Shown: positions 22,900-44,696 of the stretch, in pieces
Position numbering within the stretch: the stretch's first letter is position 1
Layout of the letters: each line of letters starts with the position of its first letter
Assembly: GCA_903835255.1 (NCBI GenBank)
Contig: CAILMI010000055.1
Span: 75,244-139,243, forward strand
Length of the DNA: 64,000 nucleotides
Origin: an uncultured Verrucomicrobia subdivision 3 bacterium
Lineage (GTDB): Bacteria; Verrucomicrobiota; Verrucomicrobiia; Limisphaerales; UBA11358
Direction of reading: 5' to 3'
Position numbers and translations under genes: made by a program
The notes under the pieces: generated by a model
What the model was told of the DNA's origin: nothing
Database searches by the model: none
The model's input: the letters and a program-made list of their open reading frames with translations, nothing else

Positions 22900-24189
22900 T
22901 TATCGGCCGACGCTCTTGTAAATCCAGCCCAGCCGCACCATTTCCGCAGGATCGAAAAGATTGCGCCCGTCGAACAGGATCGGATGCGTCATCCCTTTTT
23001 TGGCGCGCGCTAGGTCGAGCTGTTTGAACTCTTCCCATTCCGTCGCCACCACCAGGGCATCACAGCCTTCCGCCACGGCGTTCATATCCTCCACATACGT
23101 CGCGGTCGGCAGCAGGGCCCGGGCCTTGTCCATGCCCTTGGGATCGTGCACCCGCAGGGTGGCCCCCTCCTGGATCAGCCGCTGGCACAGAGCAATCGCC
23201 GGCGAGGAGCGGACGTCATCCGTGTTCTGCTTGAAAGCCAGCCCGAGCACGCCAATGGTCTTGTCCTTGAGCACCCAGAGCGTGTCGGTGATTTTCTTGA
23301 GGAAGCGCTCCATCTGGTCGGCATTGATATGCTGCACCTCTTTGAGCAGCTTGAAATCATAGCCGATCTGCTCGGCGATTTTAATGAACGCGCTCAAATC
23401 CTTGGGGAAACAGCTGCCGCCGAAGCCGATGCCGGCATTGAGAAAACGCCGTCCAATGCGCTCGTCCAGCCCGATGCCCTGCGCCACCTCCTGCACGTTG
23501 GCGCCCGCCGCCTCGCAGACCGTGGCGATGGCGTTGATATAGGAAATCTTCAGCGCTAGAAAGGAGTTCGCCGCGTGCTTGATAAGTTCCGCGGAGTTGA
23601 TGTCGGTGACGATGATGGGCGCCTGGAACGGGGTGTAAATTTCGCGCATGGCCGCGACGGGCCGGGGCGAGCGGGTGCCGATCACCACGCGATCGGGCTT
23701 CATCAGGTCGCCGACGGCAAACCCTTCGCGCAAAAATTCGGGGTTGCTGACCACGTCGAATTCCACCTTGGCGGGGCAGTAGCGCTGGATGGTCTCGGCA
23801 ACTTTCTCGCCGGTTTTGACGGGCACCGTGCTTTTGTCCACCACGATCTTGTAGCTGGTCATGGCGCCGGCGATGTCGCGGGCCACGCGCTCGATGTAGC
23901 TCAAGTCCACCGAGCCGTCCGGCTGGGGCGGGGTGGGGACAGCAATGAAGATGACGTCGGATTTCTCAACGCCTTCCGCCGTGCTGTGCGTGAAGCTGAG
24001 CCGCCCGGCGGCGACGTTTTTCCGGACCAGCTCTTCCAGTCCAGGTTCATAGATGGGAATGCCGCCCGCCTGCAACAGTTTGACCTTGGCGGCGTCGCTA
24101 TCCACGCAGATGACCTGGTGACCGACCTCAGCAAAGCAGGTTCCTGAGACCAAGCCGACGTAGCCGGTGCCGATGATGGTCAGCTTCAT
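22900..24189 (-). CDS. ugd: UDP-glucose 6-dehydrogenase
   Basis: MKLTIIGTGYVGLVSGTCFAEVGHQVICVD...GGSCFPKD is the catalytic Cys motif. I use the ATG at 24189; the track's 24198 start is a TTG. Confidence 0.9.
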   Translation of the reverse strand: MKLTIIGTGYVGLVSGTCFAEVGHQVICVDSDAAKVKLLQAGGIPIYEPGLEELVRKNVAAGRLSFTHSTAEGVEKSDVIFIAVPTPPQPDGSVDLSYIERVARDIAGAMTSYKIVVDKSTVPVKTGEKVAETIQRYCPAKVEFDVVSNPEFLREGFAVGDLMKPDRVVIGTRSPRPVAAMREIYTPFQAPIIVTDINSAELIKHAANSFLALKISYINAIATVCEAAGANVQEVAQGIGLDERIGRRFLNAGIGFGGSCFPKDLSAFIKIAEQIGYDFKLLKEVQHINADQMERFLKKITDTLWVLKDKTIGVLGLAFKQNTDDVRSSPAIALCQRLIQEGATLRVHDPKGMDKARALLPTATYVEDMNAVAEGCDALVVATEWEEFKQLDLARAKKGMTHPILFDGRNLFDPAEMVRLGWIYKSVGR

Positions 24190-24194
24190 TCCAA

Positions 24195-24893
24195 TCAATG
24201 AGTCAGAGTAAAGGGCGCCGCGGCCGCGGCGGGGGCCGACTGAGCGGGGGCGGCGGACGATTGGGTCTTGAGTTCCATCGCGCGCAGTCCGGCGTCATTG
24301 CCCAGAGTGCTGTTCGGATACGTGCGGGCCACTTCTTCGTACAGCTTCAAGGATTCGGCGGTTTTGCCCTGGGCGGCATAGACACGGGCCATTGCAAATT
24401 TGGCGTTGGCGCCCACGGTCGGGCCGGCCGACAGGCTGGCGGCTTTTTGATAAGCGGGAATGGCAAGATCGTTTTTACCCTGGGCTTCCAAGCTGGCCGC
24501 CACGCCTAGCAGGGCGGTTGGAGTGAAGGCACCATCCGGATTGGCATTGATAAAAGCCTGAAACTGAGCTTGCGCCTCAGGAAACTTGCCAGAGTGGAAC
24601 AGCGCGGCGGCCCCTTCCAGCTGGGCGCGCTGGGCGGCAACGGTTCCGGGATAGGCGCCGGCGATTTTCAGGTAGGTTTCTGCGGACGGGTTCGCGCTGT
24701 TGGAAACCATCGCCTGGGTCAGCGCCAGGCCGGCGGCGGCCTCTTTTTGTTTCTGGCTGTAGGAATGATAGAGGAATAAAAAGACCAGCACGGCGGCGGC
24801 CCCGACGGCATAGGCGATGCGCTTGAGGTTGGCTTCAATCCACGGCCAGAGTTTGAAGAGGTAGTCGGAGGCGGTTAGTTCTCGGGTGTCCAT
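24195..24893 (-). CDS. membrane-anchored tetratricopeptide-repeat protein (YfgM/YbgF-like)
   Basis: An N-terminal TM helix (IAYAVGAAAVLVFLFLY) is followed by Ala-rich TPR-like repeats (AQRAQLEGAAALFHSGKFPEAQAQFQAFI...AKFAMARVYAAQGKTAESLKLYEEV). Confidence 0.65.
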   Translation of the reverse strand: MDTRELTASDYLFKLWPWIEANLKRIAYAVGAAAVLVFLFLYHSYSQKQKEAAAGLALTQAMVSNSANPSAETYLKIAGAYPGTVAAQRAQLEGAAALFHSGKFPEAQAQFQAFINANPDGAFTPTALLGVAASLEAQGKNDLAIPAYQKAASLSAGPTVGANAKFAMARVYAAQGKTAESLKLYEEVARTYPNSTLGNDAGLRAMELKTQSSAAPAQSAPAAAAAPFTLTH

Positions 24894-31832: not shown

Positions 31833-34220
31833 TCAGAAAAAACTTCGCCCGGGGCGATGGGGATTTTCAGGCTGCATGATTCCGGGCGTCCCCTCCTCAG
31901 CGGGGAGGTATTGCAAGATGCCAGGCCAGCCGTTTTGAATCCATGCTTCGGTCATTTTACCCAACGTGTCGCCGGATGACCCGAGATGCTCTCGGGCGGC
32001 CTGTCCGGCAGCCTGGGGATCTTTCTCCGCCCAGCATTGGAACAGGAGCTGATACGTCCGCTCGTCGGGCGCGGGTTGCAACTCATTCAACCGGGCCAGC
32101 GTGTTTTGAGGATTGTCTGCCGCCAATGCCGGGATGATTTCTCCCAAGGCGCGCGCCCGGGAACCGGCATCCGGCATCTGACAGACCCAGTTGAAGGCTC
32201 CGGGCAAATCCCTCTTCATCCAATCCTCCAGCACGGCGAGTTGAAAATAGGTTGCGGAATCACTCGCCCCCTGCTCGTTCACAATCGTTCCCTCAATGCC
32301 GCTGGCGCTGGCCATGGCAGTTAGGGGATTCTCCCACCCCAGCCGGACCAGTAGCCACTTCTGAAAATGGCTGCGTTGTGAATCATTCAAAATGACCGAG
32401 GACATCTTGAGGGCTTCGGGTATCTGCTCCCGCGGAATCGCCGCCGCCAACTGATCGAGGCTGCGTCGCCGGCTGCCATCGCGCTCCGCCCCCCCGATAT
32501 CCCCCAGCACCTGCCGAATCCGTGCCGAATCCAACGCTCCGGTTGCCAGATCGTAATCGCCGGCCGCTTCCGCAGCTGCCCGGTCGAGCGTCTGACGGGC
32601 AACCTGGCGTTGCCGCATGGCTTGGCTGGCGGCCAGCAGGGACAGCACCGCCAAGAGCGCCAGAGCCCCGGTGAGCCGCCGCGCATTCCGGGTTCTTTTT
32701 TGGGCCTCCTGAATCTGGCTTTGAACTTCCTGACCCACATTCCGGGACTGACTTTGGATTTCAAGAAGCCGGCTCTGCGCGTCGCTGGCTTGAGCCTGCG
32801 CTTCCAGAATCCTATTTTGCGCCTCACGCGCTTGAATGCGGGCCGCCTCCAGCTCGCGCTGCACCTCTATGAATTTGCCGTCATCGCCCGCACCTTGATT
32901 GTTTTTTTCTTCAAGCTGACGCTGGAGGCTCTGCGCCTCCCGGACCTGGTTTCGAGCCGCCTCCAGTTGATTCTGCACTTCCAGGACCTTGCTTTCGGCA
33001 GCAAGCGCCCGGTTATGGGCCTCCTCCCATTGAGCGTGCGCGGACCGGGCCTGATTCTGAAATTCCTGAATCTGACTTTTGGCCTCCAGCAATGGGTCCT
33101 GGCCGTCCCCAGCGGGGCTGCGAGCCCCCTCGGGTTGGCTCGAGGAATGCGGCACCTCACGGGCCTGATGGCGGGTCTGCTCCAGTTGGCCCTGCACTTC
33201 ACGGGAGAAAGCTTGTGCTTCCAATACTTTATTTTCTGCTGCGCGAGCCCGTTCGCGGGCCTCCTCCAGCTGGGCCTGGGTGTCCCGGACCTTATTTTGT
33301 AATTCCAGAAGCTGTTGCTGGGCGGCATGGGTCTGGTTCAGGGCTTCTTGAGCCTGATGGTGCGCCTCCTGAATCTGGCCTTGAACATCGCGCGGGAGAT
33401 TTTGCGTTTCCAAAACCTGATTCTGCGCCTCGCGAATTTGACGCTGCGCTTCCTGCAACTGACGCCGTGCCTCCTCCACCTGGTTGACCGCTGTGCGGAC
33501 TTGCTCCTGGGCGTCAGCAAAATCATGGAAGTGGCGTTTTTGCTCACGCCACCACAGCCCGTTAAATCCGACCCCGATCAGCAGGGCGATCAGATGAATC
33601 TTGGCCCTCTCTAAATCAGCTTGGGCGGGCCGATGATCGTTTGCCAGAATTTCCCGTTTTTCATCGCCGTACCGGGCATCCACAAAAAGGCATCGGCCCG
33701 CGCGCCGGGTGAGATCGATCGCTCCATCCGACCCCACCGGGTGACGCAATGCGGGAACAAAACACTCGTCTTCAGGGGAGGCGCCCGCCTTGCTTCCATC
33801 GCTGGCATGCGGTTCGCCCGACACCACAATCGGCAGAATATTTCGACTGCGACCGAGCTGCTTGAAATAGCGAACGGCTTCATTCACCCGAACGTTTTGA
33901 GCCGAGCGGGGCGAACAGATCACCACCAGGCAGAGGGACTGCTCCAACGCCCTGCGATCCTCCGCGGTCAGGGCGGCCTCGTCGGACAGTCCCGACTCTT
34001 CCCCGAAAAAAGGGTGAATTCGATCCGGAATGATCTCGCCCCGACCATTGACCTGGCCGACGAAATCCGCCGGGATAGAAAAAGTCTTTAGCGCCTCGTG
34101 CAACCAATTGCCCCAACACAGGCGGCTCACCTCCTGAGGGCTGGGGCTGGGGCGCTGATCGCGATTGTCCTGGCTACTAAAACTAAGGAACGCTAAATAT
34201 TTATTATCGGCACCGGTCAT
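31833..34220 (-). CDS. TIR-like domain / long heptad coiled-coil / single-TM / helical-repeat protein (795 aa)
   Basis: Residues ~7-135 are YLAFLSFSSQDNRD...IHPFFGEESGLSD...CLVVICSPRSAQNVRVNEAVRYF...ILPIVVSGEP, which I recognise as the TIR_2-type pattern. Residues ~235-512 form three blocks of (E/D)(A/V/T)QxQxx heptads. Residues 516-534 (LTGALALLAVLSLLAASQA) form a TM helix flanked by KRTRNARR. Residues 535-795 carry W..(K/E)DP..A-type helical repeats. Confidence 0.8.
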   Translation of the reverse strand: MTGADNKYLAFLSFSSQDNRDQRPSPSPQEVSRLCWGNWLHEALKTFSIPADFVGQVNGRGEIIPDRIHPFFGEESGLSDEAALTAEDRRALEQSLCLVVICSPRSAQNVRVNEAVRYFKQLGRSRNILPIVVSGEPHASDGSKAGASPEDECFVPALRHPVGSDGAIDLTRRAGRCLFVDARYGDEKREILANDHRPAQADLERAKIHLIALLIGVGFNGLWWREQKRHFHDFADAQEQVRTAVNQVEEARRQLQEAQRQIREAQNQVLETQNLPRDVQGQIQEAHHQAQEALNQTHAAQQQLLELQNKVRDTQAQLEEARERARAAENKVLEAQAFSREVQGQLEQTRHQAREVPHSSSQPEGARSPAGDGQDPLLEAKSQIQEFQNQARSAHAQWEEAHNRALAAESKVLEVQNQLEAARNQVREAQSLQRQLEEKNNQGAGDDGKFIEVQRELEAARIQAREAQNRILEAQAQASDAQSRLLEIQSQSRNVGQEVQSQIQEAQKRTRNARRLTGALALLAVLSLLAASQAMRQRQVARQTLDRAAAEAAGDYDLATGALDSARIRQVLGDIGGAERDGSRRRSLDQLAAAIPREQIPEALKMSSVILNDSQRSHFQKWLLVRLGWENPLTAMASASGIEGTIVNEQGASDSATYFQLAVLEDWMKRDLPGAFNWVCQMPDAGSRARALGEIIPALAADNPQNTLARLNELQPAPDERTYQLLFQCWAEKDPQAAGQAAREHLGSSGDTLGKMTEAWIQNGWPGILQYLPAEEGTPGIMQPENPHRPGRSFF

Positions 34221-38582: not shown

Positions 38583-39071
38583 ATGGACTCACTCCACGCA
38601 CCCTGGCGGATCGAATACATTCTCGCCAAAAAACCCGAATTAAAGGAGGGCGTCTTTGCGCGCATCGCGCAATCCTCCGACGACGAGGCGAACCTTGTCG
38701 TGGTGCGCGACCGGACCTGTTTTGCGCTGCTCAACCGTTATCCCTACAACGGCGGGCACCTGATGATTGTGCCTTACAAGGAGGTGCCCGACTTGAACGG
38801 GCTGACCGACGAGGAAGTGGCCGATCTCTGGAAACTGGTTCGACGCTGCATCAATGCGCTGACCGCGGTGATGAAGCCGGACGGGTTCAACGTGGGCATC
38901 AACCTAGGCAAGGTTGCCGGCGCGGGCATCCTCGAACATCTCCATATCCACATCGTGCCGCGCTGGAATGGCGACACCAATTTCATGCCGGTCATCGCCG
39001 ACACGGGAGTCGTGCCGGAGGCGCTGCAGGAGGTGGCCGCCCGACTCCGCGCGGCACTGGCTGCATCCTGA
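38583..39071 (+). CDS. HIT-family nucleotidyl transferase/phosphorylase (Ap4A-phosphorylase-type branch)
   Basis: MDSLHAPWRIEYI...NRYPYNGGHLMIVP...HLHIHIVPRWNGDTNFMP carries the histidine-triad motif, with the PW..EYI N-terminus and RW.GD.NFM tail typical of the GalT/Ap4A-phosphorylase branch. Confidence 0.8.
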   Translation: MDSLHAPWRIEYILAKKPELKEGVFARIAQSSDDEANLVVVRDRTCFALLNRYPYNGGHLMIVPYKEVPDLNGLTDEEVADLWKLVRRCINALTAVMKPDGFNVGINLGKVAGAGILEHLHIHIVPRWNGDTNFMPVIADTGVVPEALQEVAARLRAALAAS

Positions 39072-39148
39072 GCGGGGACGGGCCGCCTGACACAGAAGCG
39101 CGAACGACCCTGTCTTTCCCGACCCCTTCGCCCTTTTGGAGAGACGGT

Positions 39149-39967
39149 CTAAAAGCCGCGCAAGTCGGTGCTGCTGCGTTTGGGCAGACCGGGCGCGGGA
39201 GTGCGCCGGAGGACGACGTATTCGATGCCGATCTCCTGGCAATACTCGCGCTTGCCGCCCTTGTCGCCATCTTCATTCACGGCATAGGCATCGGGCTTGA
39301 GCCGCCTGATTTCAGGATCGGCATCCAGCCACCCGCTGCCGCTGGAGATCAATGCCTGCTTCACAAACTTGATCGACCCCACCACGTAGCGGCGCTCCTC
39401 CTGGGACAGCAGCGGATGACCTTCGCCCTTGAGCAACCGAATATTGGCGTCGTGCCCCACGATGACGTAGGCATCCCCGAGCGCGTTGAGCTCCTCGGTG
39501 AAACGGACATGACCGGAGTGGAACCAGTCGTAACAGCCGGTGGCAATGATCTTTTTTCGGCCGGGCGCGGACGGCATCGGCGGCGGCTCAGGGAACCCCG
39601 CCAGCTCGGCCGCAGTGAAGATGCGGCGGGCAATCCGGTTTTCACGGGCGAATTGGTCCCGGGCGGAATGGGTTGCCGTCGCGGCATCCGCCCAGACGTC
39701 CATCTTCAAATGATTCGGCAGCGCGTTAATATCTACCGCGTCAGCGCCGGCCACCACCTTGTTCACGTAGCGCACGGCGTTCAAGAAATATGCCCGTTCC
39801 GCCAGCGGAAATTTGGGCGGCTTGCCGGCGAACTGCTGAAGCACGCTGTCCGGCCATAATAAAACCGTCAGTTCGCCCAGCTTTGAAGCCTCCTCCAGCA
39901 GACGCAGGTCGCGCGACGTGATGTCGTCGAACCCGCCGCTGACCACCACCTGTGTTTTTATCGACAT
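39149..39967 (-). CDS. tandem cytidylyltransferase-fold (CTP_transf_like) protein: degenerate N-terminal copy plus a C-terminal copy with an intact HxGH motif
   Basis: The C-terminal half (KKIIATGCYDWFHSGHVRFTEELNALGDAYVIVGHDANIRLLKGEGHPLLSQEERRYVV) resembles TagD / RfaE domain II. The N-terminal half (VVVSGGFDDITSRDLRLLEEASKLGELTVLLWPD...) has the same fold pattern but no HxGH. Confidence 0.7.
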   Translation of the reverse strand: MSIKTQVVVSGGFDDITSRDLRLLEEASKLGELTVLLWPDSVLQQFAGKPPKFPLAERAYFLNAVRYVNKVVAGADAVDINALPNHLKMDVWADAATATHSARDQFARENRIARRIFTAAELAGFPEPPPMPSAPGRKKIIATGCYDWFHSGHVRFTEELNALGDAYVIVGHDANIRLLKGEGHPLLSQEERRYVVGSIKFVKQALISSGSGWLDADPEIRRLKPDAYAVNEDGDKGGKREYCQEIGIEYVVLRRTPAPGLPKRSSTDLRGF

Positions 39968-39971
39968 GATC

Positions 39972-40118
39972 TTAGGATTGAATTCTAAGCGCGCGCGCGA
40001 TCGGGCTCGGCAACTTTTCAGTTAGGGCGCGCTGCAGCACGCGCCGGTATTTTAAAATACTCCCAATCGCCCGCCTCGTGTCCGGCTTCATTTCCATGCC
40101 GCCTAACACACCCATCAT
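39972..40118 (-). CDS. candidate 48-codon small ORF filling the kinase-cytidylyltransferase gap (speculative)
   Basis: The peptide reads MMGVLGGMEMKPDTRRAIGSILKYRRVLQRALTEKLPSPIARALRIQS. Its ATG overlaps the TGA of the upstream GHMP gene (ATGA), and its TAA ends 4 nt before the next ATG. I recognise no homology. The same segment also holds a GGCGCG-ctgcagca-CGCGCC hairpin. Confidence 0.3.
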   Translation of the reverse strand: MMGVLGGMEMKPDTRRAIGSILKYRRVLQRALTEKLPSPIARALRIQS

Positions 40119-40924
40119 GGCAATCCGGATGCCGTCCGCACGTTCACGCGGAAGGCGCCGGGGACCGGCTTTTCGGAAACCACCACCAGATAGCCGCCGC
40201 CGCAGCCGGAATACATCGCGCCGGGATATTGCCGCTGATACGCCTTTAAAATCGGCATCAAGTCCACGCGCAGCCGCGGATGCCGCACCACGTGCGGAAG
40301 CAGGGTCCCCCAGCACTTCATAGTCAGATTCAGCGACGCGCCGAGGGCCTGGGCATCCCTCCTCACGATGGCGTCGAAGCACTCCCTGCCCGACTGGCCG
40401 AGCCGGGCGACCCACTTGGGCGAAAGATTTTTGACGCCGAGCGGACTGTAGCCATCCGGCCGCGGCTCCACGGGAATCAGGTGCAGCACCCGGCTCAACC
40501 AGCGCGCGACCTTTAGGCGATTGCACGATTCAATATGCGAGGGGAAGACTCCGCCTTGGATTTTGAAGTCATAATCCAGCCGATTCACGCCGGGATAGAT
40601 CAGCCCGATCATATCCTGCGATCCGCTCGGGTCGGCCTTGCCTTTATTTTCGGCGGCGTAGAGCTCGCGGACCAGCTCTTCGGGCGGACGGCTGGGCAGC
40701 CGGCCTTTCCACAATTTCATTGCCACGGCGCGCGTGCCGCTGGCGACGCCGGAGCGGTCCATCGGCCGGAAATCCGGTTCAATCTGCACAACCACCATTG
40801 ATCCGGGCGGCCGAGGATTGTGACGGGAGACAAACGGCTGGTCAATCCAACCGCCGGCCAGCTGCAGGCGATTGGGGATAGCGCCGAGCAGTGTGGCGAC
40901 GGGTGACGCGGCGGGCTGTTTCAT
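40115..40924 (-). CDS. compact GHMP-family sugar kinase (fucokinase/HddA-like subfamily)
   Basis: From MKQPAASP: NRLQLAGGWIDQPFV matches the R.dlAGGw.D.P pattern of this subfamily. DRSGVASGTRAV is a motif II equivalent, GSQDMIGLIYPG resembles G.QDQ, and YSGCGGGYLVVV is motif III. The start ATG shares one nt with the stop of the epimerase gene (TGATG). Confidence 0.65.
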   Translation of the reverse strand: MKQPAASPVATLLGAIPNRLQLAGGWIDQPFVSRHNPRPPGSMVVVQIEPDFRPMDRSGVASGTRAVAMKLWKGRLPSRPPEELVRELYAAENKGKADPSGSQDMIGLIYPGVNRLDYDFKIQGGVFPSHIESCNRLKVARWLSRVLHLIPVEPRPDGYSPLGVKNLSPKWVARLGQSGRECFDAIVRRDAQALGASLNLTMKCWGTLLPHVVRHPRLRVDLMPILKAYQRQYPGAMYSGCGGGYLVVVSEKPVPGAFRVNVRTASGLP

Positions 40925-41973
40925 CAGCCGATGCCGATGCGCTTGCCCGCCTTGCGTTTGCCGTACTGCTGCCGGATCCACGTATAGGTTTCCGCAAGCC
41001 CCTTGTTCAAGGTCGTGCCCGGCTCCCACTTCAGGACTTTTTGGATGAAAGTATTATCCGAATTGCGGCCCGCCACACCCTGGGGCGCAGTCAGATCGTA
41101 TTTGCGGTTCATCTTCACCCCGGCAATTTTCTCAATCTTGCTCAAGAGCTCGTTGATGGAGACCAGCTCGCTGGAGCCGAGATTGATGGGCGTGGCGATC
41201 AATTCGTCGCAGTGCATGATTTTATCAATGCCCTGAACGCAGTCGTCGATGTACATGAAGCTGCGGGTCTGCTCGCCGTTGCCCCAGATCAGGATGTCCT
41301 TTTTGCCGCTGTCCACGGCCTCGATGACCTTGCGGCTCAGGGCGGCGGGCGCCTTTTCGCGGCCGCCATCCCAGGTGCCGTGCGGGCCATAAACATTGTG
41401 GAAACGGGCGATGGCCGTCTTCATGCCGCGTTCGTGCCAGTATTCCTCGCAGAACTGCTCGGAGATTAGTTTTTCCCAGCCGTAACCGCGCTCCGCCATC
41501 GCGGGGTACGCATCGGACTCCTTCAGCGCGCGAACCTTTGGATCCTTCTGCAGGAGCGTGTTGTAGGCGCAGGCCGAACTGGAGAAAAAATAACGGCGGG
41601 CACCCGCCCGATAAGCGGCCTCCAGCATATGAGTGTTGACGAGGATCGAACGCAGGCATTCCACCCGAAACCGTTCGATGAATCCCATGCCGCCCATGTC
41701 AGCGGCCAGATTGTAAACTTCCACGGCGCCCTCGCACACGCGATGGCAGTTCGCCTCCTCGCTCACATCCAGGCAAAGGTTGTGGACGCCCGGCACCTGG
41801 AGATACCACTCGTAGAGCGGCTTCTTATCCACGGCACGGATGTTGGTGAACCCCTTCTTCCGGAAATACCGGGCGAGGTTGCCGGCGATGAACCCGCCCG
41901 CGCCGGTGATGACGATTAAATCATCCTTCTTCAGCGGGGCGTCCTTTTCCACGATTCGTTTCTTTTCTTGCAT
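40924..41973 (-). CDS. GDP-mannose 3,5-epimerase-like SDR
   Basis: From MQEKKRIVEKD: ITGAGGFIAGNLARY, NLAADMGGMGFI, SSACAY, LKESDAYPA, YGWEKL, RFHNVYGPHGTWDGGREKAPAA, WGNGEQTRSFMYIDDCVQG, GRNSDN, GLAETYTWI. These match block for block the plant GME sequence as I remember it (NLAADMGGMGFI, SSACIY, LKESDAWPA, RFHNIYGPFGTWKGGREKAPAA, GRNSDN). Confidence 0.8.
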   Translation of the reverse strand: MQEKKRIVEKDAPLKKDDLIVITGAGGFIAGNLARYFRKKGFTNIRAVDKKPLYEWYLQVPGVHNLCLDVSEEANCHRVCEGAVEVYNLAADMGGMGFIERFRVECLRSILVNTHMLEAAYRAGARRYFFSSSACAYNTLLQKDPKVRALKESDAYPAMAERGYGWEKLISEQFCEEYWHERGMKTAIARFHNVYGPHGTWDGGREKAPAALSRKVIEAVDSGKKDILIWGNGEQTRSFMYIDDCVQGIDKIMHCDELIATPINLGSSELVSINELLSKIEKIAGVKMNRKYDLTAPQGVAGRNSDNTFIQKVLKWEPGTTLNKGLAETYTWIRQQYGKRKAGKRIGIG

Positions 41974-42040
41974 AAATAGGTTGCCGGCGGGCCCCGGCAC
42001 CGGACACAACGCCCGGGAGCGACCCCGCCAACCCGGACAT

Positions 42041-42103
42041 AATAGCTTCGACAGGGCGGCGGTGGAATAGCTATCGTTGACCTGTGCATGGATATTATTG
42101 ACC
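42041..42103. promoter_or_regulatory. short direct repeats in the divergent AraC / epimerase control region
   Basis: AATAGCT occurs at 42041..42047 and 42066..42072 (25-nt spacing). TTGACC occurs at 42077..42082 and 42098..42103 (21-nt spacing). These are candidate operator half-sites or -35-like boxes. Confidence 0.3.
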
Positions 42104-42110
42104 CTATTTT

Positions 42111-42998
42111 ATGAAAACCGGATGCGCCCCCATCCGCCGCACCCCTGCCCCGCCGGAATTCTTCTCGACCGACGTGGCGCGCGCGCGCCGATTCTATCTC
42201 GACCTCAATCCGCTGAAAAAACGGCCGCTGACAGTGGTCTGCGGCGGGGTGGAGCACTGCACCCCCGATTACCAGGTCCGCCGAAAAACCTTTCCATTCT
42301 ATTCCATCGAATATGTGCTCCAGGGCCGAGGCACGCTGCAGATTCAGGGCCGTGCCCTGCCCCTGCGCCGCGGCCGTCTTTTTTCCTATGGACCAGGCAT
42401 TCCGCACCACATCACAGGGGACGCGGCCGATCCGCTGGTCAAATACTTTGTGGATTTTTCCGGGACCCATGCCCTGGGACTGTTGCGTTCCTGCGGCATC
42501 CTGCCCGGCGGGGTGACGGAGGTTTTTCCAGCGAACGCGCTGCAGCCTCTAATGGATGAAATTGTCCAAGCTGGGCTGCGGGGAGGGCGTCCGAACGCCG
42601 CCCTGTGCGCCAAACTGCTGGAATGTGTGGCGCTGCGGGCGGCGGCGGCGCGCTCCCCGCTCGCCGGCACGGAGACGGCCGCTTTCACCACCTATCAACA
42701 CTGCCGCCGCTACATCGAACAGCATTGTCTGCGCCTGCGAACCCTGGCTCAGGCCGCCAGCGAATGCCATGTCACCAACGCCTACCTCTGTCGCCTGTTT
42801 CAGCGCTATGACAGCCAAAGCCCCTACCAATACCTGCTCCGGCTCAAAATGAATCAAGCCGCCGAGCAACTGCGACAGCCCGGCGCCCTGGTTAAACAGG
42901 TGGCGGCGGATTCCGGCTACCCGGATCCGTTTCACTTCTGCCGCGTATTTACCTCCGTTTTCGGACGATCCCCTGCCATCTTCCGCGGGCTGCGATAG
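42111..42998 (+). CDS. AraC-family transcriptional regulator (cupin sensor + HTH)
   Basis: The N-terminal part is an AraC_binding-like cupin (FPFYSIEYVLQGRGTLQIQGRALPL). The C-terminal part has the double HTH (YLCRLFQRYDSQSPYQYLLRLKMNQAAEQL...GYPDPFHFCRVFTSVFGRSP). Confidence 0.85.
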   Translation: MKTGCAPIRRTPAPPEFFSTDVARARRFYLDLNPLKKRPLTVVCGGVEHCTPDYQVRRKTFPFYSIEYVLQGRGTLQIQGRALPLRRGRLFSYGPGIPHHITGDAADPLVKYFVDFSGTHALGLLRSCGILPGGVTEVFPANALQPLMDEIVQAGLRGGRPNAALCAKLLECVALRAAAARSPLAGTETAAFTTYQHCRRYIEQHCLRLRTLAQAASECHVTNAYLCRLFQRYDSQSPYQYLLRLKMNQAAEQLRQPGALVKQVAADSGYPDPFHFCRVFTSVFGRSPAIFRGLR

Positions 42999-43164
42999 AT
43001 CGTCCTCGAGCCGGGGCGCTTTCGCCTTTGCCAAGCCAGCAGCCATCGTTTAATTTTCTGCCATGACTCCCGTCACGACACTGCGGATGGCCGTTCACTC
43101 TGGCGGAGTCCGAGGGGGTTTTAGAAATCAATCCGGATTCGCCCCCGCCAAAAAATAAAAAATT

Positions 43165-44130
43165 GTGGCCACCGAGACCCTTCATTACGAAAACGCGCGA
43201 TTTGCGCAGCAACTGTTCAACCACGAACCGCGCAATCTGCAGGCGCTGGAAACCGAGTTAGGCGTCAAGGCCACCGCGCGGGATGGCTGGATCAAACTGG
43301 AGGGCTCCGCCGGAGCGGTGGAACGCGCCAAACAGCTGTTCGAATCCCTCCAGCATCTGCTGCAGTCCGGAGCGCCGGTGAAGAACCGCGAATTCTCGCA
43401 CGCGCTGAACGTCGTCAGGCATGAGGGCGCCTCCACGTTGAAAGATCTCGTGAGCGACCGGGTGGAAACCCACGAGCGCAAGCCGGGGGTGACGGCCAAA
43501 ACCGTCGGCCAGAAGAAATATCTCGATGCCATCCGCCAGCACGACATCACGTTCGGCATCGGCCCGGCGGGAACGGGTAAAACCTATCTGGCAGTCGCCA
43601 TGGCGCTGTCGGCAATGCGCGCCGGCAAGACATCCCGGATCATCCTGACCCGGCCCGCCGTGGAGGCCGGCGAGGCGCTCGGGTTTCTGCCGGGGGACCT
43701 TTACGAAAAAATCACGCCCTATCTGCGCCCGCTGCACGACGCGCTGCAGGACATGCTGCCCGCCGAGGAGATTGTCCGGCACACCGAGCGCGGAACCATT
43801 GAGATCGCCCCCCTGGCCTACATGCGCGGCCGCACGCTGAACAACGCGTTCATCATCCTGGACGAGGCGCAGAATTCCACGACGGAACAGATGCTGATGT
43901 TTCTGACGCGGCTCGGTCACGGATCCAAGGCGGTCATCACCGGCGACGAGACCCAGGTGGATCTGCCGCCGCACAAGCATTCCGGCTTGGCCGAGGCGCA
44001 CCGGGCGCTGCAACGGACGGAGGGCATTGCCATCGTGGAGTTTTCACGTCGCGACGTGGTGCGGCACCCCCTGGTGCAGCGCATCATCGCGGCCTATGAG
44101 GAGCATCGCGGCAAAGCCAAAACCGAATGA
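43165..44130 (+). CDS. phoH: PhoH-family ATPase
   Basis: A GTG start and a Walker A motif (GIGPAGTGKTYLAVAMA) are present, plus ILTRPAVEAGEALGFLPGDL and FIILDEAQN. Confidence 0.9.
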   Translation: MATETLHYENARFAQQLFNHEPRNLQALETELGVKATARDGWIKLEGSAGAVERAKQLFESLQHLLQSGAPVKNREFSHALNVVRHEGASTLKDLVSDRVETHERKPGVTAKTVGQKKYLDAIRQHDITFGIGPAGTGKTYLAVAMALSAMRAGKTSRIILTRPAVEAGEALGFLPGDLYEKITPYLRPLHDALQDMLPAEEIVRHTERGTIEIAPLAYMRGRTLNNAFIILDEAQNSTTEQMLMFLTRLGHGSKAVITGDETQVDLPPHKHSGLAEAHRALQRTEGIAIVEFSRRDVVRHPLVQRIIAAYEEHRGKAKTE

Positions 44131-44696
44131 GCCCGGCCGTTAAAAATACCCAGAGCCGGCGCGTTACGGCCAAAGGAATCCGACCGGCTCACCCCCAGCC
44201 CTCTCCCGCCATGGACCTCGCCATTGCCAACCGTCAGCGGACACGGAAAATCGACCGGCGACGGCTCCGGCAAATCGTGTCCAGCCTGTGCGCTGAACTG
44301 GGGATCCCGGAGATCACGCTAGGCATCCATCTGGTGGGGGCGTCGGAGATGACGCGAGTCAATGAGACCTTTCTGCGCCACGCGGGCTCGACCGATGTGA
44401 TCACCTTTGACCATTCCGATCCGGTCACCGGCCTCCGGCCCGCGGCATCGCCACTGCACGGCGAACTGTTCGTCTGCGTGGACGAGGCGGTGCTGCAGGC
44501 CAGACAATTCAGAACGCGCTGGCAATCAGAAGTGGTGCGCTACATCGTCCACGGCGTGTTGCATCTTCAGGGCCACGACGACCGACGGGCGGCCGACCGG
44601 CGACGGATGAAGGGCGAGGAGGATCGGCTGGTGCGGGGGCTGACCCAGCGATTTTCGCTCGCGCAACTTTCCGGCACGGTTAGAATCGGCGAGTGA
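44127..44696 (+). CDS. ybeY: rRNA maturation endoribonuclease YbeY
   Basis: The zinc motif HGVLHLQGHDD is present. The ATGA start/stop overlaps phoH. An alternative start (MDLAIANRQ, 44211) would give a more typical length. Confidence 0.85.
   Translation: MSPAVKNTQSRRVTAKGIRPAHPQPSPAMDLAIANRQRTRKIDRRRLRQIVSSLCAELGIPEITLGIHLVGASEMTRVNETFLRHAGSTDVITFDHSDPVTGLRPAASPLHGELFVCVDEAVLQARQFRTRWQSEVVRYIVHGVLHLQGHDDRRAADRRRMKGEEDRLVRGLTQRFSLAQLSGTVRIGE

Follow-up and report, generated by a model that had tools for sequence, protein, structure and literature searches.

In the bifunctional enzyme FKP of Bacteroides fragilis, R592 and D762 of the L-fucokinase domain flank the anomeric oxygen of the sugar, with D762 as the general base; W599 forms a stacking contact with C4-C5-C6 of fucose, O3 and O4 are bound by D601, and O4 is bound by Q761 as well (PMC11982464). 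The replacements W599A and D601A each lower kcat/Km more than 3000-fold, and the enzyme also phosphorylates L-galactose and D-arabinose (PMC11982464). In the plant GDP-mannose 3,5-epimerase (GME) AtGME, S143, Y174 and K178 form the catalytic triad, C145 and K217 the acid/base pair, and R306 acidifies the cysteine; a lysine and an arginine tell GME apart from GMER, which has histidine and lysine in these places (PMC8787198). A verrucomicrobial enzyme, MfGM35E of Methylacidiphilum fumariolicum, is a demonstrated GDP-mannose 3,5-epimerase, whose proposed physiological role in lipopolysaccharide (LPS) synthesis is a guess only (PMC6678494). A GME and a kinase resembling the L-fucokinase domain are encoded by adjoining genes in the DNA described here, a stretch of 64,000 nucleotides (the window) from an uncultured Verrucomicrobia subdivision 3 bacterium (GenBank assembly GCA_903835255.1, contig CAILMI010000055.1, positions 75,244 to 139,243 of the forward strand), where they form a cassette with a nucleotidyltransferase gene and a divergent gene for an AraC-family regulator.

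With a probability of about one half, we read this cassette as an AraC-controlled operon for free L-fucose-type sugars, through which L-galactose would be drained to GDP-mannose and L-fucose salvaged. The reading draws on the identities of the genes, the predicted fold of the kinase, the conservation of pocket and catalytic residues, gene fusions in distant homologues and the gene order in relatives. The parts of the cassette, in window coordinates and with the genes taken from the list of open reading frames (ORFs), are:

40924-41973, minus strand: GME, 349 residues
40115-40924, minus strand: kinase (KIN), 269 residues
39968-40114, minus strand: spacer between KIN and NT, 147 bp
39149-39967, minus strand: nucleotidyltransferase (NT), 272 residues
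39578-39967, minus strand: N-terminal degenerate cytidylyltransferase-like half of NT
39152-39559, minus strand: C-terminal HxGH domain of NT, with PF01467 over residues 141-237
41974-42110: divergent intergenic region, 137 bp between two start codons
42111-42998, plus strand: AraC-family regulator, 295 residues, divergent from the operon

The enzymes and their regulator

Residues 19-342 of GME match the plant GME structures 8sg0 (E 1.4e-76, 261 bits) and 2c59 (E 4.5e-76) in a sequence search of the PDB, and the best match outside the GME family is GDP-fucose synthase at E 5.7e-24; the HldD model of NCBIfam gives 51 bits (E 1e-13), with a cut-off of 274.6. The motifs SSSAC, YGWEK, GGREK and AGRNSDN supply S133, C135, Y164, K168, K207 and R303, the counterparts of S143, C145, Y174, K178, K217 and R306 in AtGME, and the glycine motif GAGGFIA follows the same GxxGxxA pattern as that of AtGME. 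Judged by these matches, the protein is an extended short-chain dehydrogenase/reductase (SDR) of the GME family with all catalytic residues kept.

The GME and KIN genes overlap at the junction GGCTGATGAAA, which reads GGC TGA TGA AAC on the coding strand, the A of the GME stop codon TGA being the first base of the KIN start codon (a TGATG overlap). The ATG at 40924 is taken as the KIN start because homologues begin at the corresponding MK...; a longer GTG-initiated ORF reaching 41029 was dismissed for the same reason.

As a single sequence KIN gives no Pfam match even at E<=10, neither GHMP_kinases_N (PF00288) nor GHMP_kinases_C (PF08544), no NCBIfam match and only noise in the PDB, and its public annotation is 'hypothetical protein'. 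GHMP_kinases_C is reached only by distant fused homologues, for example P0218 with 29.1 bits at a cut-off of 21. A family profile built from 49 diverse members, when compared with the PDB, finds the L-fucokinase domain of B. fragilis FKP first (9iip, 5yys and 9iit, E 7e-18 to 8e-17), followed by HddA-like heptose kinases (3k85 at 5e-8, 4n3o and WcbL 4usk) and mevalonate kinases. An AlphaFold model made from a diverse alignment of 50%-identity representatives has a predicted local distance difference test score (pLDDT) of 93.4 and a predicted template modelling score (pTM) of 0.91, compared with a pLDDT of only 42.8 from a shallow alignment limited to homologues of 80-87% identity. All 50 of the 50 PDB matches listed by Foldseek for this model are GHMP proteins (TMq 0.39-0.67, probability 1.00), with WcbL at the top and FKP fucokinase and HddA-like kinases also leading, and the model thus confirms the two-domain GHMP fold predicted for KIN.

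The family is large. More than 7,400 of 8,000 candidates scored are homologues at E<=0.001, and clustering at 50% identity divides the family into 670 groups; the top 120 homologues share 80-99% identity with KIN, and the named ones among them are nearly all 'hypothetical protein'. In a species-representative set with one genome per species, 586 of 599 matched stretches encode a relative.

The sugar pocket can be read from the alignments. The motif P-x-R-L-x-L-A-G-G-W-x-D-Q-P of the KIN family aligns in HMMER with S-P-V-R(592)-I-D-M-A-G-G-W(599)-T-D(601)-T-P of FKP, placing R19, W26 and D28 at R592, W599 and D601. The segment G101-S-Q103-D104 aligns with GKQDQ of the HddA-like 3k85, and we infer from the motif that G101, Q103 and D104 are equivalent to G759, Q761 and D762 of FKP. 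W26, D28, G101 and D104 are invariant in the 49 sequences, at identities down to 31%. Motif III, S-G-C-G-G-G-Y, with G240 and G242-G244 conserved, aligns with GAGGGGY of FKP, and motif II is atypical (D-R-S-G-V-A-S-G-T-R), with G59 as its only invariant residue. Heptose kinases have GGGSD (3k85) or GGGTD (4n3o) at the GGWxD position, the tryptophan being replaced by glycine. Because KIN keeps GGWxD, with R19, W26 and D28, where the heptokinases have GGG(S/T)D, its sugar pocket is by alignment of the fucokinase and not of the heptokinase type. KIN is most likely a compact anomeric sugar kinase, with L-fucose or L-galactose, phosphorylated at O1, as the predicted substrate.

NT matches PF01467 with 47.2 bits (cut-off 21) in two stretches, and carries the public annotation 'cytidyltransferase-like protein'. 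Its best PDB match is human ethanolamine-phosphate cytidylyltransferase (ECT), itself a tandem cytidylyltransferase (CT) protein; the profile comparison gives ECT at 7.6e-25, the Thermoplasma RfaE-II-like 3glv at 7e-17 and TagD at 1e-13, with CCT also among the matches. HxGH is present in the C-terminal half as H150-S-G-H153, of which H153 is invariant, together with a terminal KRSSTDLR. In the N-terminal half, GGFDDITSRDL stands in place of GxFDxxHxGH, TSRD replacing HxGH, and the similarities are weak (residues 5-45 to NF001985, residues 56-103 to ECT). The degenerate motif is kept in relatives, some of which retain xSGH (RSGH in L024, QSGH in P0160). NT is, by these sequence features, a tandem HxGH protein of the PF01467 family. 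Because HxGH has been lost from the N-terminal half, only the C-terminal half is likely to be catalytic, and the N-terminal half is probably a non-catalytic partner in an internal pseudo-dimer, as in ECT. The NTP_transferase domain and beta-helix of the GDP-fucose pyrophosphorylase (GFPP) type are not found in NT, which matches only PF01467 and structures of the HxGH family. All NCBIfam equivalogs lie far below their cut-offs (rfaE_dom_II, TIGR02199, the best, at 62.8 bits against 181.5, and TagD at 46.2 against 165.4).

The divergent gene encodes a protein that matches PF12833 (HTH_18) with 62.9 bits and PF02311 (AraC_binding) with 49.7 bits, both above the Pfam cut-offs; on these matches it has the N-terminal cupin-type ligand domain and C-terminal double helix-turn-helix of the AraC/XylS family. 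The 137 bp between the two start codons are presumed to hold the promoter and operator region of both transcription units, and matches to the sigma-70-like consensus in and around them are weak only.

An earlier note on this DNA, made from the sequence alone, had described four genes at these positions, a TGATG overlap between epimerase and kinase, a plant-type GME, a compact GHMP kinase of the fucokinase/HddA type and a divergent AraC gene, and all of this holds. The similarity to plant GME at 1e-76 and the retained catalytic residues bear out the epimerase, the kinase assignment came from the family profile and the predicted structure rather than from single-sequence searches, and chance ORFs are excluded by the number of KIN homologues and by a gene order that recurs in 80 species-level genomes. 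Its description of NT as a double cytidylyltransferase fold agrees with the two stretches of PF01467, but only the C-terminal half has HxGH.

The operon in relatives and in the window

The gene order was followed in 80 species-level verrucomicrobial loci, the denominators below being those loci with room for the gene in question or otherwise informative. NT follows KIN in 72 of 77 loci. The gap between them is at most 120 bp (3-118) in 60 of 74, typically 3-12 bp, and in the other 14 it is occupied by GH29, a gene of about 1.65 kb. GME, 76-91% identical to that of the window, lies upstream of KIN in 51 of 71 loci, with a gap of at most 120 bp in 35 of 52, and a divergent AraC homologue lies upstream of GME in 30 of 47, mostly 87-223 bp away. 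In 8 loci an NTP_transferase-family gene takes the place of AraC upstream of GME. The triad of GME, KIN and NT is conserved at KIN identities down to 46-62%: it is kept in a lineage with KIN at 62% and GME at 75% identity, and also where the distance between a fused CT-KIN gene and the GME gene (56% identity) is about 0.9 kb. The association of the module with GME and AraC, to which the earlier note had drawn attention, is thus real and conserved, but not universal.

Distant KIN homologues carry a CT domain of the type found in the C-terminal half of NT, fused at their N-terminus, in the following arrangements:

Single CT and KIN: P0133 and P0155
Tandem CT and KIN: P0160 and P0167
L-rhamnose-mutarotase (rhaM), CT and KIN: P0192
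PNP_UDP, CT and KIN: P0218

Taken with the gene order, these sequences make KIN and NT one functional unit, and the fusion of mutarotase, transferase and kinase is the signature of a pathway that starts at a free reducing sugar. The contig of P0167 (L095:410-4706) also carries a Fis1-like (mitochondrial fission) gene and TPR genes, and the KIN family may occur in a eukaryote as well.

The neighbours of the module in relatives point to the sugar. GH29 alpha-L-fucosidases with signal peptides are found in 33 of the 80 loci, with 14 insertions in the KIN-NT gap and 6 in the GME-KIN gap, on the same strand; in L009:3792-13348, four GH29 paralogues and the gene for one further secreted protein, of 507 residues, are interspersed among GME, KIN and NT, all on one strand. 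GH95 occurs in 5 of 80 loci, FucU in 11, and a major facilitator superfamily permease above the TIGR00885 (L-fucose:H+ symporter) cut-off, FucP, in 11; ManC follows the operon in 4. In L053:7001-14791 and L069:6944-14791, KIN, NT and FucU face convergent genes for FucP, LutC, LutB, LutA and L-fucose isomerase (FucI), a fucose supercluster in which the KIN-NT module stands next to the classical isomerase pathway and lactate oxidation. Where no GME is near, KIN and NT lie behind carbohydrate-active enzymes for pectin and hemicellulose (GH35, GH53, GH10, PL4 rhamnogalacturonan lyase, CE8 pectinesterase, GH43, GH2 and GH3). Outside these loci, a contig of Bacteroidota type, with a Por_Secre_tail gene, carries [rhaM-CT-KIN], FucP and GH29 genes in one direction, an independent case of the module in a fucose setting. 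A secreted BD-FAE or alpha-beta-hydrolase esterase gene lies convergent downstream of NT in 16 of 80 loci (L071:8612-9487, minus strand, for example), often with a gene for a PEP-CTERM protein (8 loci) or GH43 (5 loci).

Insertion of GH29 genes inside the operon is not expected by chance. FucU and FucP are normally low-copy genes, and the GH29 and GH95 families both include alpha-L-galactosidases. Because GH29, GH95, FucU and FucP join the cluster, two of them low-copy and two of them in families with L-galactosidases, we conclude, as far as sequences and gene order can tell, that the KIN-NT module handles L-fucose-configured sugars (L-fucose, its 6-hydroxy analogue L-galactose, or both) and not heptoses.

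A heptose pathway is a rival reading. It would have an HddA-type KIN, an HldE-domain-II-type NT and a heptose-epimerase SDR activate a heptose or another biosynthetic intermediate for LPS, and it can appeal to the rfaE domain II model as the best NCBIfam match of NT, to the heptokinase WcbL as the top Foldseek match of KIN, and to one distant fusion that neighbours a GT9 heptosyltransferase gene in an LPS locus. KIN nevertheless has GGWxD and not GGG(S/T)D, its score to FKP is better by about 10 orders of magnitude, and the SDR matches GME at 1e-76 where the HldD model gives only 1e-13. No GmhA- or GmhB-like genes are among the recurrent neighbours that were scanned, which are fucose-specific (FucP, FucU, GH29, GH95, FucI). 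On the pocket, the identity of the epimerase and this context the heptose pathway was dismissed as highly improbable.

In the window the cassette has a G+C content of about 0.58-0.62, similar to the remaining window, and this comparison gives no sign of a foreign island. It is flanked by housekeeping genes (SMC, HIT protein, PhoH, YbeY, DUF502, RecO, ProS, CdsA, Dxr, GcpE, glutamate synthase and topoisomerase I), and a scan of the remaining 64-kb window for fucose or glycan genes found housekeeping genes only. The sole further nucleotide-sugar enzyme recognised among the scanned ORFs is of the UDP-glucose/GDP-mannose dehydrogenase family (22900-24198, minus strand), about 15 kb from the cassette. 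A FucU-like tblastn match at 39242-38925 was dismissed, since it covers only the out-of-frame upstream extension of the query ORF, which overlaps the 3' end of NT, and since no more than 77 bp lie between NT and the HIT gene.

The spacer between KIN and NT is unusually long, 147 bp compared with 3-12 bp in most relatives. It contains a GC-rich hairpin, GGCGCG-N8-CGCGCC, at 40026-40045 and a 48-codon ORF whose ATG overlaps the KIN stop codon (ATGATG) and which ends 4 nt ahead of the NT start; the gene calls on L001-L003, contigs of the same species, include this ORF. Because 14 relatives carry GH29 at exactly this site, the spacer is possibly the scar of a lost GH29 gene.

On the other side of NT, 77 bp away and tail-to-tail with it, lies a HIT-family gene (38583-39071, plus strand), which matches NF052622 (ATP adenylyltransferase / Ap4A-phosphorylase-like) with 165 bits, below the cut-off of 290. 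GDP-L-galactose phosphorylase belongs to the HIT/GalT-branch enzymes, and the HIT protein could in principle release hexose-1-phosphate from a GDP-sugar. It was not adopted as a GalT- or VTC2-like step, as it adjoins the cassette only in the species of the window and in L077, where it travels with PhoH and YbeY. The order in L077:1510-9188 is AraC (minus strand), GME, GH29, KIN, NT, HIT, PhoH and YbeY, all on the same strand except AraC. In the window (38583-44696) the AraC-GME-KIN-NT block is inverted between HIT and PhoH relative to L077, and a comparison of the two gene orders therefore indicates a local inversion of the cassette in the window. Further away, a gene at 31833-34220 (minus strand) encodes a protein of 795 residues with long Gln/Glu-rich coiled-coil repeats and a hydrophobic segment; its only Pfam match, Tropomyosin, is below the cut-off, and it was assigned to no family.

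The proposed pathway and competing readings

In the pathway proposed for the cassette, KIN would phosphorylate the anomeric hydroxyl of L-fucose or L-galactose to give the beta-L-sugar-1-phosphate, the C-terminal half of NT would condense the sugar-1-phosphate with a nucleoside triphosphate (NTP), presumably GTP, to the nucleoside diphosphate (NDP) L-sugar, and GME would interconvert GDP-L-galactose and GDP-D-mannose. L-Galactose would be drained into GDP-mannose and hence into the mannose-phosphate pool; for L-fucose the chain would end at GDP-L-fucose, a salvage product. With ManC working in reverse after GME, the net cost would be one ATP. KIN and NT would together form a non-orthologous two-gene counterpart of the bifunctional FKP, and the operons of relatives would add the upstream steps through secreted GH29 and GH95, the FucP permease and the FucU mutarotase, with the window copy as the minimal core.

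We infer the substrates, the use of GTP, the effector of AraC and the net direction of flux from the surrounding evidence. GTP is proposed for NT on two grounds: the partner enzyme GME, co-translated, is an epimerase of GDP-sugars, and all known fucosyltransferases use GDP-fucose. The equilibrium of GME lies on the GDP-mannose side, and the flow from L-galactose to mannose would therefore be downhill. The dual outcome for the two sugars is favoured because GME is co-translated with KIN and, in relatives, co-transcribed with secreted fucosidases, and the role in L-galactose use because only GDP-L-galactose gives GME a sensible job in that setting.

A free L-sugar that is phosphorylated, nucleotide-activated and epimerised was also what the earlier note had proposed, and this part agrees with the gene identities. 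A route for free L-fucose or L-galactose predicts secreted GH29 and GH95, FucU and FucP in the operons of relatives, as observed above. In close relatives there was found no sign of a heptose-only kinase, of the cassette embedded in LPS or exopolysaccharide (EPS) loci without AraC, or of an epimerase outside the GME clade, each of which the note had named as speaking against its proposal. The note knew of no described pathway with this gene combination, and full-text literature searches likewise returned no account of the KIN family, of a CT-fold fucose-1-phosphate transferase, or of an operon of GME, kinase and transferase.

A number of observations weigh against the reading of the cassette as an operon that drains L-galactose and salvages L-fucose, and they concern the nucleotide, the completeness of the route and the direction of flux. 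As to the nucleotide, the nearest solved relatives of NT (ECT, TagD and CCT) use CTP, domain II of HldE uses ATP, and we know of no HxGH-type transferase that uses GTP. If the product of NT were a CDP- or ADP-sugar, GME would not act in series with it. This is the substance of an alternative in which the product of KIN and NT is a nucleotide sugar other than a GDP-sugar (CDP- or ADP-L-fucose, or a similar L-sugar derivative), destined for some other acceptor, and GME acts separately. Besides the nucleotides used by the characterised relatives, among which domain II of HldE is itself a sugar-1-phosphate-using enzyme, the alternative is favoured by the match of NT to TIGR02199, at 62.8 bits below the cut-off, and by the many loci that have KIN and NT without GME. 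We regard it as unlikely, given that fucosyltransferases depend on GDP-fucose and that CDP- and ADP-fucose are, to our knowledge, not known, and given that the translational coupling of GME and KIN, and a triad that holds together even between deeply diverged lineages, point to a metabolite in common.

As to completeness, homologues of GH29, GH95, FucU and FucP are absent from the 64-kb window itself, ManC adjacency is rare, and some co-location with GH29 is expected by chance, this family being numerous in Verrucomicrobiota. GME is absent within 7 kb in 20 of the 71 verrucomicrobial loci, and the Bacteroidota operon of [rhaM-CT-KIN], FucP and GH29 has none, so that KIN-NT does not depend on a GME gene next to it. 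Both L053 and L069 have a further peculiarity: the canonical FucI, FucP and LutABC genes stand beside the module, and fucose catabolism there therefore needs no KIN-NT.

As to direction, the P0160 fusion (L086-L088:8001-9620), whose identity to KIN is about 43%, is found in a locus of LPS type together with genes for GT9, LpxD, LpxI, Kdo kinase, GT2, GT4 and an MsbA-like ABC transporter, a setting that suggests a role of the module in glycan synthesis there, and other KIN homologues are fused to glycosyltransferase domains of the GT2 and TcdA/TcdB types. These cases, and with them the Bacteroidota operon without GME and the FucI pathway beside KIN-NT in L053 and L069, are also what recommends a purely anabolic supply, in which KIN and NT would salvage L-fucose and L-galactose as FKP does and GME would run forward, with GDP-L-fucose and GDP-L-galactose feeding fucosyl- and L-galactosyltransferases for envelope or exopolysaccharide glycans and no catabolism taking place. 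The known or proposed roles of GME and FKP in PMC8787198, PMC6678494 and PMC11982464 are all biosynthetic, and fucosyltransferases take GDP-L-galactose as a donor (PMC8787198). The recurrent neighbours fit this supply role poorly: the 25 commonest ORF families of the 80 loci include none of glycosyltransferases, flippases or polymerases, and the neighbours scanned serve degradation or uptake. A divergent AraC gene, and a GME transcribed together with secreted fucosidases, are features typical of operons for nutrient acquisition, there is no obvious logic in co-expressing an enzyme for de novo GDP-L-galactose with a salvage route, and the cassette of the window lies among housekeeping genes, outside any glycan locus. 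A purely anabolic operon is the main rival of our reading and is judged rather unlikely.

The operon for draining L-galactose and salvaging L-fucose remains the reading that we prefer. A more specific claim can be made within it, that soil and freshwater Verrucomicrobiota have a GDP-sugar-mediated catabolic route for L-galactose that leads through KIN, NT and GME in reverse to GDP-mannose and mannose phosphates. This route would include the first HxGH-fold sugar-1-phosphate guanylyltransferase and would exist side by side with the FucI route for L-fucose, both being supplied through GH29, GH95, FucP and FucU. It is put forward tentatively, as a possibility of clearly less than even odds.

A large family, in which the close relatives of KIN are almost all named 'hypothetical protein', gains a concrete predicted assignment as anomeric L-fucose/L-galactose kinases with a transferase partner of unexpected fold, and the operon context offers a specific hypothesis for the role of bacterial GME, the only characterised example of which has been tied to LPS tentatively. 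If the catabolic reading is true, the cassette would represent a third Leloir-type pathway in bacteria and the first that is GDP-based, bacterial GME would gain a catabolic role, a new enzyme family would be present in at least 586 species-level genomes, and the result would bear on the use that the abundant Verrucomicrobiota make of L-sugars from the walls of plants and algae.

Comparison with known systems

The Leloir pathway, its Isselbacher variant and the bifidobacterial lacto-N-biose/galacto-N-biose pathway (NahK, GalT2, GalE2) share with the cassette an anomeric kinase, a nucleotide activation, an NDP-sugar epimerase and an inducible regulator. The cassette differs in having no GalT-type (HIT-superfamily) exchange transferase, activation being by a putative pyrophosphorylase as in the Isselbacher variant. 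The term 'Leloir-like' used in the earlier note is loose in this respect; because no GalT-type transferase is present, the scheme is better called a pyrophosphorylase (Isselbacher-type) variant. The chemistry would be GDP-based and not UDP-based, with a double inversion at positions 3 and 5 instead of a 4-epimerisation, and metabolism could be re-entered only through ManC working backwards or through a GDP-sugar phosphorylase; ManC is adjacent in only 4 of the 80 loci.

The heptose systems of HddA and HldE use the same three fold classes, a GHMP or PfkB kinase, an HxGH adenylyltransferase and an SDR epimerase (HldD). They are set apart from the cassette by the pocket of KIN, with tryptophan for glycine, by an epimerase that is GME and not HldD, and by the fucose-specific context of the module. 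The likeness of NT to ECT (Pcyt2) lies in the two CT-fold halves of a single chain, which form an internal pseudo-dimer in ECT and probably in NT. ECT acts on a phospho-alcohol and CTP, whereas the N-terminal half of NT lacks HxGH and the partner genes of NT indicate a sugar-1-phosphate as the probable substrate.

By similarity and catalytic residues the GME of the window belongs to the same family as plant GME, which serves the ascorbate/L-galactose pathway, and MfGM35E. The known or proposed roles of these enzymes, in ascorbate, in the cell wall and, by guess for MfGM35E, in LPS, are biosynthetic, whereas the GME of the window is coupled to a salvage kinase. This suggests that it acts on a salvaged GDP-L-sugar, possibly in reverse.

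FKP shares with KIN and NT the two-step logic that leads from free L-fucose through beta-L-fucose-1-phosphate to NDP-fucose. Both have a GHMP kinase with the same Arg/Trp/Asp pocket, and GxQD of KIN matches the catalytic Gln-Asp of FKP; some KIN lineages have fused kinase and transferase, in the same order as FKP, with the nucleotidyltransferase first and the kinase after it. The differences lie in the transferase, which in NT is a tandem HxGH cytidylyltransferase fold with one degenerate half and in FKP a GT-A/NTP_transferase domain with a beta-helix; in the size of the kinase, 269 residues compared with about 360 for the C-terminal domain of FKP, with KIN escaping the Pfam GHMP and NCBIfam models; and in the linkage of KIN-NT with GME and AraC, joined in relatives by genes for fucosidase, FucP and FucU. 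In a phylogenetic survey of FKP, FUK and GFPP published in 2025 there is no mention of Verrucomicrobia or of a partner of the cytidylyltransferase type. As a two-gene or naturally fused alternative to FKP, KIN and NT together with GME would be useful for the enzymatic synthesis of GDP-L-fucose, GDP-L-galactose and analogues. NT is not homologous to the GFPP domain, and KIN-NT would therefore be an analogue of FKP rather than a member of its family.

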